A stretch of DNA of 64,000 nucleotides from Nitrosopumilaceae archaeon (GTDB taxonomy: Archaea > Thermoproteota > Nitrososphaeria > Nitrososphaerales > Nitrosopumilaceae). A program made the position numbers and the translations under genes. Below, one piece after another: positions 32,821-39,244 of the stretch. Each line of letters starts with the position of its first letter. Positions within the stretch are counted from its first letter, which is position 1. Below the pieces are notes generated by a model. That model did not search any database, was not told the DNA's origin, and saw only the letters and a program-made list of their open reading frames with translations. Where the stretch lies: contig OZ242365.1 in the NCBI GenBank assembly GCA_965208905.1, positions 2,048,001-2,112,000 of the forward strand, read 5' to 3'.

Positions 32821-34152
32821 ATGTTCATCATGGCAAAGTTTCTTATTGTCGGGTCCGGGGCTCGGGAAGCATCATTTGCGCTACAATTAATGAAGGACAC
32901 GCAGCTGTATGGTGTTATAGGACACAAGAACCCTCTGATAATAGACTGTATTCACCAATCTGGAGGGGAGTACATTGTGGATGATGCCGATGATCCAGAT
33001 ACAGTACTGAAGTTTGCCAAACAACACAAGATAGATTATGCTTTTGTTAATGCTGATCAACCTCTGGCCAACGGCGTTGTTGATGTTCTATTGGAGCACG
33101 GCATCAAAGCTATTGGTGGAACACAGGCTGCAACCCGTATAGAGTGGGACAAGGTATACGCCATGGAGATGATGCAGAAGAGGTGTCCTGAATTTACTCC
33201 ATTTTATATTGTGGTATCTGATAAAAGATCACTATCCCAAGCACTATCCGAATTCAAATCCCGTAATCTTGAGGTTGTAGTAAAGCCTCAGGGCCTTACT
33301 GGGGGGAAAGGTGTCAAAGTAATGCCAATACACCTACCCACATATGATGACTGCTATAACTATGCCATGTCGTTATTTGATGGACGGCCCAATGAGAGTG
33401 TATTATTGGTGGAAAGATTGCAGGGGATAGAGTTCACCATAATGGGAATTACTGATGGCAAGAATCTAGTTATGGCCCCTGCCAGTTACGACTATCCGTT
33501 CCGGTATGAGGGTGATGTGGGGCCTGGAACTGGTGGTATGGGATGCTTCACTGCAGCAGAGAAGAAACTTCCATTCATGACAGATGAGAACCTGACAGAC
33601 TGTAAGACCATAATGCAACGTATAATTGATGAGATGCGACATACAGGTCTACGTTTTAGCGGAGTTCTAAATGGTGGATTCTTTAAGACCACAAGGGGCA
33701 TAAAATTTATGGAGTTTAATGGGCGCTTTGGTGATCCTGAAGGGTTGAACGTCCTAAGTGTTCTGGATGGTTCACTGGCATCTGTTCTAGTTCACATCTG
33801 GAATGGAACCATATCTGATGATGTGATTACATTTGCCAAAAAGGCTAGTGTCACTAAATATCTGGTTGCAAAGGAGTATCCGGAACACAGCGGCACAGCA
33901 ACTGAATTCACCATAGATGTAAAGTCCATTGCAGAGATGGGCATAAAGACGTACTTTGCCTCCTGTATACAGGTGGGCGATACAAGATATAGGACACTTA
34001 AAAAGTCACGGGTCGTTGCCTTGGGTGCCGTAGCCGATACAATACAAGAGGCATCTCATATAGTAAATATAGCCATAGACAGACACATACAAGGCAATCT
34101 AGAGTATAGGTCCGATATAGGTTCTGCTGAAAGTCTGCAAAGACTCCATTGA
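32821..34152 (+). CDS. purD: Phosphoribosylamine-glycine ligase
   Basis: VGSGARE, GGKGV, GPGTGGMG, EFNGRFGDPE. Confidence 0.93.
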   Translation: MFIMAKFLIVGSGAREASFALQLMKDTQLYGVIGHKNPLIIDCIHQSGGEYIVDDADDPDTVLKFAKQHKIDYAFVNADQPLANGVVDVLLEHGIKAIGGTQAATRIEWDKVYAMEMMQKRCPEFTPFYIVVSDKRSLSQALSEFKSRNLEVVVKPQGLTGGKGVKVMPIHLPTYDDCYNYAMSLFDGRPNESVLLVERLQGIEFTIMGITDGKNLVMAPASYDYPFRYEGDVGPGTGGMGCFTAAEKKLPFMTDENLTDCKTIMQRIIDEMRHTGLRFSGVLNGGFFKTTRGIKFMEFNGRFGDPEGLNVLSVLDGSLASVLVHIWNGTISDDVITFAKKASVTKYLVAKEYPEHSGTATEFTIDVKSIAEMGIKTYFASCIQVGDTRYRTLKKSRVVALGAVADTIQEASHIVNIAIDRHIQGNLEYRSDIGSAESLQRLH

Positions 34153-34394
34153 TGCTTTTTAAAGTGTACTGTATGTAGACTCCTACAATTTTGATGTAAA
34201 AGACACACATGTAGCGTAATCCATACTGGTGCTGAGATGTAATACATTACATAATGACCATTCATACCAAGATCTTGTGACAGTGTCGGTATACTGCATT
34301 CTGCCATTGTATATACATCAAAAGTGCAGTATTTGATGGTCAGATTATATCAGACTGTTCATCTGTTGTCTTTACGTGTGAGCCCACAGAAGAC

Positions 34395-34496
34395 TTATAA
34401 AAGACCACATTTCACCATACATCATGATGACAACCGCAACCCAAACGTTGTTGGTATTGTCCTAGCGCGTTAAACTACGCGCATTTGAGGTGTGTT
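34395..34496 (+). promoter_or_regulatory. ilv/leu leader: TATA box, leader ORF 34424-34465 (MMTTATQTLLVLS*), hairpin 34465-34482, SD GAGGTG
   Basis: TTATAAAA at 34395; GCGCGT-TAAACT-ACGCGC stem; ATG of ilvB at 34497. Confidence 0.65.
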
Positions 34497-36197
34497 ATGT
34501 CTAGTAATATCAAAACAATGAGTGGAGCTCAAGCATTAATGGAGGCCATGGAACGTGAGGGAGTCAAGGAGGTGTTTGGACTGCCTGGAGGCGCCAACCT
34601 TCCCATGTATGATGAATTCAACCGGTGTGACATTCGCCACATTCTGGTACGCCATGAGCAGTCTGCATCGCACATGGCAGATGGATATGGCCGTGTCAGC
34701 CGCAGGCCGGGAGTCTGCTTTGCCACATCCGGACCTGGTGCTACAAATATACTGACAGGCATAGCCACTGCGCAGGCGGACTCGGCTCCAATGATTGCAG
34801 TTACCGGTCAGGTACCCGTCAATATGATTGGCAAGGATGCTTTTCAGGAGAGTGACATAATGGGGATGGCAAATCCGGTAGTAAAGTATGCATTTCAACC
34901 CCGGACACCTCAAGAGGTACCAGTAGCAGTTCAAAAGGGCTTTTATATTGCATCAACAGGAAGACCAGGACCTGTTCTTATCGACATCCCCAAGGATGTA
35001 CAAACTGATAAGGCAGAGATGTGTTATGTAGAAAACTTCAAGATTCGTGGTTATCACCCGTGGGTGGAGCCGGATGTAACCAGTATCGGGCGCGCCATCG
35101 ATACTGTGATTCGCGCAGACAGGCCCATAATACTGGCTGGTGGCGGAACCATAATATCATCTGCATTTGCCGAACTTCAGGCACTAGCAGAGTTTCTATC
35201 CATACCCGTAGTAACCACATTCAAGGGTAAGGGTGCATTTCCTGAAAATCATGCACTCTCACTAGGGCCGATAGGCATGCATGGCCATGCTGAAGCCAAC
35301 AAGGTGATATCCGAAGCAGATTGCGTACTGGCAGTAGGTACTCGCTTCTCTGATCGTTCTGTGGGAACATTTGATGACTTTGAGAGTCGTAGAAGTATCA
35401 TACACATGGATATCGACCCCGCCGAGATAGGTAAAAATCAGACTACCAATGTTGCGGTGATAGGGGATGTAAAGGTCACACTACGCATGATGCTGGCCAT
35501 GCTACAAGAGCGACGTATACAAATAACAGAAGGCGGGGAGTGGGTACGGCACGCACAAGAGATGCACAAATACTGGCAGGAGAACTTAAAGATTCATCCT
35601 GGAGAGCTGAGCGCCGCCCGCATACTGCGCAAACTACGTGAGGTATTACCATCCGAATCCATAGTTACTACAGAAGTGGGACAGCACCAGATGTGGGCAT
35701 CACTCTTCTTTGATGTTATATCGCCGGGTACCTTCTTTAGCTCGACTGGCCTTGGTACTATGGGATGGGGATTTCCCGCCGCCATAGGGGCTAAAGTGGC
35801 CAAGCCAGATGTACCTGTCGTGGATATTGCAGGTGATGGCAGCTTCAACATGACAGAGAACTCTCTGGCGACATCGGTACTAGAGAACATTCCGGTCATT
35901 GTCTTTTTAGTGAATAATTATAGTCTGGGTATGGTGGCCCAATGGCAGAGGACGTTCTTTAAGCGCCGAATGGTGGGTGTGGATCAGGGCCAGTGTCCAG
36001 ACTATGTAAAACTAGCCGAGTCATACGGCGCGCAGGGCATACGGGCTCATACCATAGATGAGCTGGATGCCGCCATACGGGCTGCCCTCAAAAGTGATAT
36101 TGCTACAGTTATAGACATACCAATTGATCCTGAAGAAGACGTGCTGCCCTTTGTAGCTCCGGGAACACCACTCACCAAAATGATACTGCCGTCGTGA
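34497..36197 (+). CDS. ilvB: Acetolactate synthase large subunit
   Basis: FGLPGGA, RHEQ, TSGPGATN, GDGSFNM...NN. Confidence 0.95.
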   Translation: MSSNIKTMSGAQALMEAMEREGVKEVFGLPGGANLPMYDEFNRCDIRHILVRHEQSASHMADGYGRVSRRPGVCFATSGPGATNILTGIATAQADSAPMIAVTGQVPVNMIGKDAFQESDIMGMANPVVKYAFQPRTPQEVPVAVQKGFYIASTGRPGPVLIDIPKDVQTDKAEMCYVENFKIRGYHPWVEPDVTSIGRAIDTVIRADRPIILAGGGTIISSAFAELQALAEFLSIPVVTTFKGKGAFPENHALSLGPIGMHGHAEANKVISEADCVLAVGTRFSDRSVGTFDDFESRRSIIHMDIDPAEIGKNQTTNVAVIGDVKVTLRMMLAMLQERRIQITEGGEWVRHAQEMHKYWQENLKIHPGELSAARILRKLREVLPSESIVTTEVGQHQMWASLFFDVISPGTFFSSTGLGTMGWGFPAAIGAKVAKPDVPVVDIAGDGSFNMTENSLATSVLENIPVIVFLVNNYSLGMVAQWQRTFFKRRMVGVDQGQCPDYVKLAESYGAQGIRAHTIDELDAAIRAALKSDIATVIDIPIDPEEDVLPFVAPGTPLTKMILPS

Positions 36198-36204
36198 TGA
36201 TAAT

Positions 36205-36690
36205 ATGGTGTGGGCGATATTCTCAATTCTAGTGGAAAACAAACTAGGAATACTCTTTGCTGTAACACATCTATTTAGGGCCAGAAACTTCAACATTGAC
36301 AGTATAGCGGTGGGGGTTACTGAGAACCCTACATACTCTAGAATGACAATTACGACATTTGGTGATGAGCGACAACTGGAACAGATTCGAAAACAACTGG
36401 ACAAGATGATAGACACTGTAGATGTACGCCGTCTAGACGATCACAAGACCGTATATAGGGAACTTGCCATTTTCAAGATAAAGATAGCCAGCGCAGAAGA
36501 CAGTATGGAAGTGAACAAACTGATAAATGCATTTGGTGCAAAGGCTCATGACTCCCGCAAAGAGTCCATAATGGCGGAGCTGACAACCACACCGGATCAG
36601 ATACGCGCATTTCAAGAACTGGCAGATCGGTTTGGCATCATAGAGATGGTACGTACGGGAATAGCCGCACTACAGAGAAGTGGATCATGA
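36205..36690 (+). CDS. ilvN: Acetolactate synthase small subunit
   Basis: ACT domain VENKLGIL...RNFNIDSI, EMVRTG. Confidence 0.92.
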   Translation: MVWAIFSILVENKLGILFAVTHLFRARNFNIDSIAVGVTENPTYSRMTITTFGDERQLEQIRKQLDKMIDTVDVRRLDDHKTVYRELAIFKIKIASAEDSMEVNKLINAFGAKAHDSRKESIMAELTTTPDQIRAFQELADRFGIIEMVRTGIAALQRSGS

Positions 36691-38195
36691 AGATACGACT
36701 CTTTGATACTACACTGCGCGACGGCGAGCAGACACCCGGAGTCTCACTATCCCCACCACAAAAGGTGATCATTGCAAAGAGATTGGATGAGTTAGGGGTG
36801 GATGTCATTGAAGCTGGATTTCCCGTAATATCTGCTGGAGAGGCTCAGGCAGTTCGACTCATATCTGATGAGAACCTAAGCTGTGAGATATGCGCGCTTG
36901 CACGCGCAAACAGCAAAGATATCGATGCAGTGTCTAATGCAAACCTATCGTATGTACACACATTCATTGCAACATCTGACATACACCTAAAGTACAAACT
37001 AAAGATGACCAGAGAAGAGGCTCTGATAAAAGCCATAGATGCCGTCACCTATGCCAAATCTTTGGGACTAAAGGTAGAGTTCTCTGCCGAGGATGCCACC
37101 CGGACCGATAGGGAGTTTTTGAATAGGGTGTTCTCCGAGGTGGCCCGGGCAGGTGCTGACCGTATAGACATACCCGATACAGTGGGTTACTCCACACCTC
37201 AATACATGGCAGATATAACGTCTGATGCAATACAATCATCGGGACTTCCCGTATCTGTACACTGCCACAACGACTTTGGGCTGGCGGTGGCAAACGCACT
37301 GGCAGGCATTCAGGCAGGAGCTGTCTGCGCACATGTCACAATAAATGGTATTGGTGAGCGTGCAGGCAATGCATCACTAGAAGAGCTGAACATGGCATTA
37401 CAATGCCTTCAACACGACACCAAATATGAGACCAACATAAACTCTGAGATGATATACGAGACATCTAGATTTATCTCAAGCATGGTAGGCATAACAGTCC
37501 AGCCAAACAAGGCCATAGTTGGCGATAACGCCTTTGGACATGAGTCGGGTATACATACACATGGCATACTGAACAATCCATTGACATATGAGCCCATAAG
37601 TCCGGAACTTGTGGGACGGAAACGGTGGCTCAAGGTGGGCAAGCATGCAGGAATGCATGGAACCAATGCCATGCTTGCCGAGTACGGCATACATCCTACT
37701 GATGAGCAGTCACAACTCATACTATCTCGGGTGAAGGATATGGGTGACAGGGGCAAACTGGTAACCGAGGTCGAACTACTATCTATAGCCAATGATGTGA
37801 TGGATGATGATAGCATCAAGGATCTGGTAAAGTTGGATGGTTTCTCTGTATCCACGGGCATAGGTACTATGCCTTATGCCTTTGTCCGACTGAACATAAA
37901 CGGCAAAGAGTACTCAGAGACTGACTTTGGTGTGGGTCCTGTCGACGCAGCATTTAATGCAATACAAAAGATAACCGGCTCTACTTCTGAGCTCCTCATC
38001 AAAGATTATGGTTTAGCATCAATATCTGGTGGTTCTCAAGCTCTCTGCGAGGTTACCGTACATGTGGCGGATACTTCGGGAAATACAATATCCTCCAAAA
38101 CAATAGGCAAGGATATTGTTACCACCAGCGTAAGGGCTGTAATCAGTGGAGCCAACCGTTTAATGCTTAAAAAGATGACTACACAAGAAGAGTAA
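36687..38195 (+). CDS. leuA: 2-isopropylmalate (or citramalate) synthase
   Basis: DTTLRDGEQ, HCHNDFG, GERAGNA, C-terminal regulatory domain GVGPVDA. Confidence 0.88.
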   Translation: MKIRLFDTTLRDGEQTPGVSLSPPQKVIIAKRLDELGVDVIEAGFPVISAGEAQAVRLISDENLSCEICALARANSKDIDAVSNANLSYVHTFIATSDIHLKYKLKMTREEALIKAIDAVTYAKSLGLKVEFSAEDATRTDREFLNRVFSEVARAGADRIDIPDTVGYSTPQYMADITSDAIQSSGLPVSVHCHNDFGLAVANALAGIQAGAVCAHVTINGIGERAGNASLEELNMALQCLQHDTKYETNINSEMIYETSRFISSMVGITVQPNKAIVGDNAFGHESGIHTHGILNNPLTYEPISPELVGRKRWLKVGKHAGMHGTNAMLAEYGIHPTDEQSQLILSRVKDMGDRGKLVTEVELLSIANDVMDDDSIKDLVKLDGFSVSTGIGTMPYAFVRLNINGKEYSETDFGVGPVDAAFNAIQKITGSTSELLIKDYGLASISGGSQALCEVTVHVADTSGNTISSKTIGKDIVTTSVRAVISGANRLMLKKMTTQEE

Positions 38196-39244
38196 TGTAT
38201 GGAATATCACTGATAACTGGTGATGGTGTGGGACCCGAGCTGGCGGACTCCGGTGTTGCCATATTGGATACAATATCCGACTGTACGGATGTAAAATTTG
38301 ATATAACACAGCTAGTCGCAGGAGATACGGCCCTCAAAGATATGGGTACTGCACTGCCTGCCGACACATTAGACAACATAAAAAAATCGGACGCGTGTCT
38401 CAAAGCGCCCGTGGGAGAGTCTGCCGCGGATGTGATTGTGCATCTACGACGGGTGCTGGATTTGTACGCAAATATACGACCTGCCCGCTCTTATCCGGGA
38501 GTGGCTTGTCTGCGAGAGGATATAGACATGGTGATAGTTCGAGAGAATACCGAAGATCTGTATACGGGTATGGAGTTTCAGATTGATGATGCTGCCATTG
38601 CACTGCGAATAATATCAAAGTCTGCATCACATAGAATAGCAAAGAAGGCATTTGAGATGGCTAAGCAACGGGACATGATGAAGAAGGTCACCTGCGTACA
38701 CAAATCGAACGTTATGCGAGTAAGTGATGGTCTGTTTCGTCGTACATGTGATGAGGTTGCTAAACAGTATGCTGATGTCATACTTGAGCATATGTATGTA
38801 GATGCATGCGCAATGAATCTAATACGACAGCCAGAGCAGTTTGATGTAATATTGACTACAAATCTATTTGGAGACATACTGTCAGATGAGTCTTCACAGG
38901 TGGTGGGCGGACTAGGGATTGCTCCGGCCGCAAACATTGGCGATAACTTTGCGCTCTTTGAACCGGTACATGGGGCCGCCTTTGATATTGCAGGTCGAAA
39001 TATGGTTAATCCCGTCTCATTCATACTATCTATACGCATGATGCTCGAATGGTTGGGCATGACAAAGTCTGATACCAGATGTATACGTATAGCAAATATA
39101 CTTGAGGGAGTCATTGCAGATACCATACAGAGTGGCAATGTAACCCATGATTTGGGTGGCAATCAAGGTACAAAAGAGTTTACAAATGTTATAGTAAATA
39201 CGTTCAAAGACTATTATCCCTCTGATGTAACAGATGTAACATGA
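38195..39244 (+). CDS. leuB: 3-isopropylmalate dehydrogenase family
   Basis: GDGVGPE, RENTE, NLFGDILSD, FEPVHG. Confidence 0.88.
   Translation: MYGISLITGDGVGPELADSGVAILDTISDCTDVKFDITQLVAGDTALKDMGTALPADTLDNIKKSDACLKAPVGESAADVIVHLRRVLDLYANIRPARSYPGVACLREDIDMVIVRENTEDLYTGMEFQIDDAAIALRIISKSASHRIAKKAFEMAKQRDMMKKVTCVHKSNVMRVSDGLFRRTCDEVAKQYADVILEHMYVDACAMNLIRQPEQFDVILTTNLFGDILSDESSQVVGGLGIAPAANIGDNFALFEPVHGAAFDIAGRNMVNPVSFILSIRMMLEWLGMTKSDTRCIRIANILEGVIADTIQSGNVTHDLGGNQGTKEFTNVIVNTFKDYYPSDVTDVT

Follow-up and report, generated by a model that had tools for sequence, protein, structure and literature searches.

The window analysed here, a stretch of 64,000 nucleotides (nt) from a Nitrosopumilaceae archaeon (contig OZ242365.1, positions 2,048,001 to 2,112,000 of the forward strand), carries the genes ilvB, ilvN, leuA and leuB in a row, and ilvB is preceded by a short upstream open reading frame (uORF) accompanied by two predicted RNA hairpins. 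An original prediction, made from the letters of this DNA alone, had proposed that the uORF encodes a leader peptide through which ribosome stalling at Leu and Val codons controls the four genes, in the manner of an attenuator. Comparison of ilvB upstream regions across the order Nitrososphaerales supports the leader element. The features of the locus are as follows (all coordinates are those of the window).

34395-34402, + strand: TATA-box-like sequence TTATAAAA, 21 nt 5' of the uORF ATG
34424-34465, + strand: leader ORF (uORF) of 13 codons, MMTTATQTLLVLS followed by a stop, from ATG ATG (34424-34429) to TAG; probably leaderless
34429-34461, + strand: hairpin 1, within the uORF; 5' arm 34429-34440 (Thr-Thr-Ala-Thr codons), loop 34441-34446, 3' arm 34447-34461 (Leu/Val codons)
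34448-34459, + strand: presumed sensing codons TTG TTG GTA TTG (Leu Leu Val Leu)
34465-34482, + strand: hairpin 2, GCGCGT (34465-34470), TAAACT, ACGCGC (34477-34482), beginning with the G of the TAG stop
34487-34492, + strand: Shine-Dalgarno (SD) sequence GAGGTG of ilvB, 4 nt 3' of hairpin 2
34497-36197, + strand: ilvB, acetolactate synthase large subunit, ATG at 34497 (TIGR00118, 693.6 bits, cut-off 538)
36205-36690, + strand: ilvN, acetolactate synthase small subunit (NF008864, 161.5 bits, cut-off 119)
36687-38195, + strand: leuA, 2-isopropylmalate synthase (NF002085, 601.7 bits, cut-off 517), overlapping ilvN by 4 nt
38195-39244, + strand: leuB-type isopropylmalate/homoisocitrate dehydrogenase (TIGR02088, 390.6 bits, slightly below the cut-off of 409.8), overlapping leuA by 1 nt

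The TATA box, the ATG, the uORF with its Leu/Val codons, the GC-rich hairpin and the SD sequence were all found where the original prediction had placed them, and its remark that no long U tract follows the GC-rich hairpin was borne out, as only TTT (ATTTGAGG) follows. The preceding gene, purD, ends at 34152, which leaves a gap of 344 nt to ilvB. The four genes are spaced by a 7-nt gap followed by overlaps of 4 and 1 nt, and are therefore taken as one operon. The SD sequence GAGGTG is fully complementary to CACCTC at the 3' end of the 16S rRNA of the same genome, as is expected for an internal cistron.

Conservation of the uORF was assessed with a detector that accepts an ATG-initiated ORF of 8 to 45 codons ending no more than 130 nt 5' of ilvB and scores it by the number of Leu, Ile and Val residues among its last eight. 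An order-wide search found ilvB in 169 of 201 genomes; the sample (n = 90) combined the ilvB loci of 30 relatives with 60 picked from this search by family and genus, and two genomes flagged as unpublished were excluded from it. Going by the named records, the family is Nitrosopumilaceae and the order extends to Nitrososphaeraceae. Loci L031 to L050, which come from those named records (the 5' end of L048 and L050 is missing), were kept out of the counts for uORFs, stop stems, TATA boxes, tail codons, shuffles, masked folds and recodings, so that no genome was counted twice. A score of at least 5 was reached by 62 of 90 ilvB upstream regions and by 3 of 90 reverse-complement controls, and a score of at least 6 by 45 of 90 and 1 of 90, respectively. 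Counted by genus, a score of at least 5 is found in 35 of 53 (controls, 3 of 53), and counted by family in 14 of 16. L001 enters these counts through an overlapping ORF in another frame; its true ORF, like that of L002, scores 4. The script possibly misplaced the ilvB start in L117, L124, L130, L135, L137, L148 and L149, which may be false negatives, and at L113 a Leu/Val tail and a hairpin are present without an ATG within 45 codons.

Within the window's genus, the uORF is kept in all nine other genomes examined (MMTTTTQLLLVLF, MMATATPTVLLVLP, MKEPATLVSLLVLL, MMVTATPLVLLVLP and MMVPATPLLLVLP). Peptides such as MMATATPTVLLVLP and MKEPATLVSLLVLL from this genus can be set beside MKLGGSASISSILLLVDLML and MTKVDSTSISSILLQVELVL from other genera of the family, and MNEHGNTTSLVELLLLVVLLD and ...KEVLLVILI from other families: between genera only the C-terminal run is conserved, while the N-terminal part is not, and outside the window's genus that part is not Thr-rich. 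The peptide MTKVDSTSISSILLQVELVL stands in front of ilvB in the cultured Nitrosotalea devanaterra (LN890280.1); strains of Nitrosopumilus or Nitrosarchaeum are further cultured carriers of the element. In the window, the Leu/Val codons occupy positions -5 to -2 relative to the stop. Among 57 distinct tails, which were chosen by their Leu/Ile/Val content, Leu accounts for 219 and Val for 105 of the 456 residues, and all six Leu codons and all four Val codons are in use. Likewise, in the genus alignment A1 the 12 bases that encode Leu-Leu-Val-Leu vary only synonymously (TTG or CTG at two codons, and A, C, G or T at the third base of the Val codon). The leader residues match the pathway, with tails dominated by Leu and Val in front of an operon that makes Val and Leu.

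Promoter geometry was compared among the same leaders. In the window's genus, a TATA-like octamer ends 21 to 24 nt before the uORF ATG. More widely, such an octamer is present in 43 of 63 leaders and lies 20 to 29 nt from an in-frame ATG in 38 of those 43, a spacing that is biased to 22 nt because the script took the octamer/ATG pair closest to that distance, and that therefore speaks for consistency and is not proof. In archaeal promoters, a TATA box at this spacing puts the transcript start on or beside the A of the ATG. The promoter geometry is thus consistent with a leaderless start. The RNA data consist of assembled contigs, which give no level, strand or 3' ends. One sponge metatranscriptome contig (run X4, record 11), from a strain 95-99% identical, covers 34424-34585 with three unaligned letters at its start and runs into ilvB, so that this RNA would begin no more than 3 nt from the uORF ATG; a further metatranscriptome contig covers 34440-34902. 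Since contigs cannot prove a 5' end, this RNA start at the uORF is a weak hint, but as the sole RNA evidence it speaks against a start downstream of the uORF, the outcome that the original prediction had named as fatal to itself. The messenger probably begins at the uORF AUG or a few bases from it and is leaderless. The 337 nt at 34087-34423, between the end of purD coverage and the uORF, are covered in 0 of 4 RNA runs and their flanks in some runs, a pattern that may reflect an assembly gap.

The uORF itself is predicted to fold. In hairpin 1, which the original prediction had missed, the Leu/Val codons pair with Thr/Ala codons of the same uORF (minimum-free-energy fold, -10.2 kcal/mol; z-score, -2.35). 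The topology is the same in L003, L004, L009 and L010, where the outer helix changes from GAC/GUC to GGC/GCC, and between families the core reads TCGAC:GTCGA or ACAAC:GTTGT, one pair being G-C in eight sequences and A-U in five. The uORF fold beats dinucleotide shuffles in 49 of 59 leaders (mean z-score, -1.22). When the tail was recoded synonymously, so that the peptide stayed the same, the native codons gave the better fold in 47 of 59 leaders; in 23 of the 59, all six genus leaders among them, at most 5% of recodings are as stable as the native sequence, and for the window's uORF only 2 of 100 synonymous tail recodings fold as well. The four Thr codons, to which the original prediction had also drawn attention, are more readily understood as forming the 5' arm of hairpin 1 than as regulatory codons: they are complementary to the Leu/Val codons and are not a second signal.

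Hairpin 2 (-10.8 kcal/mol) is tied to the stop codon. In all 10 genus loci its 5' arm begins at position +2 relative to the stop, and in an alignment of nine sequences from the genus its seven pairs are formed in 96.8% of cells, compared with 6-62% for slid controls; compensatory changes occur at two pairs (C-G to U-A and U-A to A-U). Beyond the genus, an ungapped stem scoring at least 15 is found at the stop in 35 of 63 leaders and at 184 of 1260 control positions, and the sequences of these stop stems are unrelated between families (GCGTGAT, GCTGTA, CCTGCAG, CCCACAG and GGGCTCA). Both hairpins covary. The alignment of ilvB upstream regions that the original prediction had proposed as a check thus gave a positive answer on all three of its points, namely the uORF, the Leu/Val codons and stem covariation.

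The 4-nt spacing between hairpin 2 and the SD sequence is kept in 7 of 10 genus loci. In L005 and L007, also of this genus, a 15-nt spacer lies between hairpin 2 and an SD sequence reading GTGGTG or GTGGCG, and the distance from the stop to ilvB is 51 nt, compared with 31-35 nt otherwise in the genus; tight spacing is accordingly not universal there. The SD sequence of L010 is degenerate (GAGTAG). In the strain represented in RNA run X4, the loop of hairpin 2 differs at 34473 (A>G) and 34475 (C>T), and the stem bases are unchanged.

Judged by these comparisons, the uORF and its leader element are real and conserved, and a leader-peptide element is well supported. That part of the original prediction holds up; its Thr codons, as described above, are read differently. 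For the window, we lean slightly towards a Leu/Val-sensing, ribosome-read leader with a post-transcriptional output acting on the ilvB-ilvN-leuA-leuB messenger. The ribosome on the leader would serve as a gauge of charged tRNA-Leu and tRNA-Val. In ribosome-free RNA, the Leu-Leu-Val-Leu codons would be locked in hairpin 1, and hairpin 2 would extend from the stop to 4 nt before the SD sequence. When supply is ample, the ribosome would reach the stop and depart, and both hairpins would re-form. When supply is short, it would dwell on the Leu/Val codons and keep hairpin 1 open and, depending on the codon, part of hairpin 2 as well: the ribosome footprint extends about 12-15 nt ahead of the A site, so that with the last Leu/Val codons in the A site it would overlap the 5' arm of hairpin 2. 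Dwelling on these codons would raise expression of the operon, possibly through easier 30S entry at the SD sequence beside the opened hairpin 2, or through protection of the messenger 5' end by the stalled ribosome. That the uORF is translated, that ribosomes stall on it, which way the operon responds and everything about the output are inferences. The conserved geometry (a leaderless start, codons in hairpin 1, a stop abutting hairpin 2 and a nearby SD sequence) favours a post-transcriptional output, which is most likely in the window's genus. For the order as a whole, we see about an even chance that Nitrososphaerales sense leucine and valine by means of a leaderless leader peptide whose codons are held in a hairpin with the start of their own ORF and whose stop lies at a second hairpin, forming a terminator-free, ribosome-read attenuator.

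The output step was examined by folding the leaders with and without a simulated ribosome. In the mycobacterial model, a uORF tail would mask the SD sequence of the next gene. In free RNA, 2 of 73 leaders show a probability of 0.3 or more for pairing between the SD sequence and the tail; in a separate fold, this probability is 0.06 in the window, with a median of 0.003. SD masking by the uORF tail was rejected as a specific feature, because it fails a synonymous-recoding control. The suggestion in the original prediction that control may be translational is thereby narrowed: it may hold in general, but its simplest form, masking of the SD sequence by the uORF tail, failed.

Several results weigh against the proposed Leu/Val-sensing leader. 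Pairing of the tail with the SD sequence appears only when the 5' half of the uORF is masked (23 of 45 leaders then reach a probability of 0.5 or more). Even so, it is no stronger in native sequences (0.454) than in synonymous recodings (0.442), so that it can be put down to G/U-rich codons lying opposite a purine-rich SD sequence in general. A simulated stall leaves SD accessibility unchanged (0.55 and 0.55 in the window; medians of 0.48 and 0.47). With accessibility flat and tail-SD pairing non-specific, no specific switch ties stalling to ilvB, and the role of hairpin 2 is left unexplained by the folds. Conservation has its gaps as well. Among the 28 of 90 loci below the threshold are 13 of 20 from family f15, 4 of 5 from family f9 and loci of four genera in the family to which the window belongs, and since the genomes are related and not independent, the counts overstate the support. 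The tail of the window's own uORF contains only four Leu/Val residues, a score reached by chance in 13% of upstream regions: among 862 genes of the window's genome with at least 150 nt of non-coding DNA upstream, 112 score at least 4, 28 at least 5 and 2 at least 6. Taken alone, the score in the window is therefore unremarkable, and the case for the element rests on its relatives.

The 112 of 862 regions that reach the window's score are also what could be said for chance, that is, for an ordinary small ORF and a palindrome that happen to share a long intergenic region. The conservation counts, the controls for the stop stem and the covariation all contradict it, and we consider chance extremely improbable. 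A more serious competitor keeps the same sensor and changes the output to premature termination at hairpin 2 and a U-rich stretch, either intrinsic or aided by aCPSF1/FttA, with the position of the leader ribosome deciding read-through. Archaeal termination uses U-tracts and aCPSF1/FttA. T4-T5 follows hairpin 2 in some lineages (L151, L160, L161 and L023, for example), and a T-run of at least four follows the stop stem in 9 of 48 leaders, compared with 35 of 459 control stems. Bacterial relatives of the device act in this way (PMC10272879; 10.1101/834739). The window itself, however, has only TTT at this place, and L004, L006 and L008 of the same genus have no T-run after hairpin 2. A scan for bacterial-type terminators gave no site at hairpin 2 and only 7 sites in the 20 kilobases around the locus, where shuffled sequence gave a mean of 12.6, and no antiterminator alternative, in which the uORF tail or another segment would pair with either arm of hairpin 2, was seen in free or masked folds. 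A bacterial-type terminator at hairpin 2 is thus unsupported in the window's genus. The direction of the response poses a further difficulty, in that, with plentiful amino acids, a ribosome close behind the polymerase would melt hairpin 2, giving a response of the wrong sign. In several of the lineages with a U-run after hairpin 2, among them L023, L041 and L043, this run is predicted to pair with an A-run just 5' of the ilvB AUG, which in L023 and L043 counts against a terminator function; a third small hairpin would result, with the SD sequence (GGAG) as part of its loop. We regard the termination output as doubtful in general, and hairpin-plus-U termination as unlikely in the window's genus.

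Two other explanations would dispense with sensing by a ribosome. The two hairpins could be a protein- or ligand-bound RNA element or an mRNA stabiliser, the reading frame being incidental to a G/U-rich helix arm. Covariation of both hairpins and the tuning of tail codons to hairpin 1 would fit such an RNA, as would the finding that the conserved bases of the Leu/Val codons in the genus are the paired bases of hairpin 1. It would nevertheless leave unexplained the in-frame Leu/Val/Ile 3' arm, the ATG at the predicted start and the stop abutting hairpin 2 (62 of 90 loci, 3 of 90 controls). Nor are there conserved unpaired bases common to the families, as a ligand pocket would need; loop bases differ even between strains, and Rfam yields no relevant match at E values up to 10. 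A structured RNA of this kind therefore seems to us improbable. Slightly less probable still is a small hydrophobic peptide that has its own function and would owe its place before ilvB to synteny and not to control. Its C-terminus is indeed conserved and hydrophobic, and the ORF resembles an independently promoted first cistron. A membrane span needs about 20 residues, however, and the genus peptides have 13-14, of which about 5-8 are hydrophobic. Further, the N-terminal part varies between genera, and conservation is confined to the hairpins and to the Leu/Val/Ile run with its position at the stop. The linkage to ilvB in 14 of 16 families also argues against an unrelated peptide, as does the result that, in the window's genome, the 260 nt preceding ilvC, ilvD, ilvE and each of three aconitase-family (leuC-like) genes showed no Leu/Ile/Val-rich leader.

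Attenuation by ribosomes is a textbook mechanism of bacteria and requires that transcription and translation be coupled. The two processes are coupled in archaea as well, which have a eukaryote-like polymerase and terminate at U-tracts with no need for hairpins; as far as is known, archaeal amino-acid regulation acts through transcription factors. In Enterobacteria, the ilvBN (ivbL), ilvGMEDA (ilvL) and leu (leuL) attenuators each comprise a short 5' ORF, rich in codons for the product and set among hairpins. The archaeal leader resembles them as a short 5' ORF before a branched-chain operon, rich in product codons and set in hairpins, at which stalling on scarce charged tRNA is presumed. It differs from them in having neither a U-tract terminator nor a terminator/antiterminator alternative, in carrying its regulatory codons at the extreme end of the ORF, within the 3' arm of hairpin 1, and in being apparently leaderless behind an archaeal TATA promoter. 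No sequence or structure match was found between the archaeal leader and the leader and riboswitch families of Rfam (Leu_leader and others); covariance models run with cmscan over 33000-36000 (E up to 10) returned four unrelated weak matches, none of them within 34395-34497.

Two bacterial systems are closer in layout. For the Corynebacterium ilvBNC leader, a three-hairpin model has reportedly been proposed, and a paper by Morbach from 2000 is said to state in its title that the leader peptide is synthesised in the absence of a ribosome-binding site; this implies that translation starts leaderlessly, as we propose for the archaeal uORF. The leader, known as the ilvB-II motif uORF, is described as a conserved uORF rich in branched-chain residues before ilvB and as a transcription attenuator (PMC10272879). 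The archaeal uORF is likewise rich in branched-chain residues and lies before ilvB; in contrast to the terminator and antiterminator stems of Corynebacterium, no such pair was found in the archaeal leader. In mycobacteria, leaderless poly-Cys short ORFs are described as exerting translational control, their Cys tract pairing with the SD sequence of the next gene in ribosome-free RNA (10.1101/834739). The common ground is a leaderless first ORF with its sensing codons at the 3' end and an SD-led gene next, and the difference is that in the archaeal leader the partner of the tail is the 5' half of the same ORF and not the SD sequence.

No report of an archaeal leader peptide or of ribosome-mediated attenuation in archaea was found in full-text literature, a coverage that excludes most subscription journals, and the word 'archaea' occurs zero times in a 2024 review of microbial uORFs. 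If the proposed reading is true, the ilvB leader would be the first amino-acid attenuation system in Archaea, and an attenuator without a terminator, following a route distinct from the bacterial terminator/antiterminator switch. Its architecture combines a leaderless start, sensing codons within one hairpin, a second hairpin at the stop and the lack of a terminator, and suggests an output step that differs from the bacterial one. The leader ORF, conserved across an order of globally abundant ammonia oxidisers, is a small element open to mutation, and the genome annotations of these archaea miss it.

Elsewhere in the window's genome, a list of upstream ORFs rich in any one amino acid gave 192 matches and was too noisy for use. 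Only two other genes have an upstream ORF scoring 6. One (C1:152631-153560, + strand; tail MVCNKRTFPSTVVILLFL) encodes a protein without an NCBIfam match, and the other (C1:860011-860952, - strand; tail ...HILHKLILV) encodes an OppD-like peptide-transporter ATPase. Both are taken as chance.

Further elements were noted upstream of ilvB in other lineages. In two Nitrososphaera-type loci (L044 and L136), about 100 nt 5' of ilvB, a CGCAG/CTGCG stem encloses in its loop a mini-ORF of four codons, ATG ATA GTA TTG TAA (Met-Ile-Val-Leu-stop), which could represent the leader reduced to a minimum or have arisen by chance. In Nitrosopumilus/Nitrosarchaeum-type genomes (L011, L013-L015, L017, L018, L024, L031-L037 and L152-L169), the interval about 15-40 nt upstream of ilvB contains a conserved block close to TTAACACATTAAAATTATGG, which also occurs where there is no uORF (L018, L024 and L037) and is missing from the window's genus. 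Part of the block can fold as an 8-bp A/U hairpin, AAUUUUAA-CACA-UUAAAAUU, and the block may serve as a further promoter or form a structure at the site of ribosome binding.

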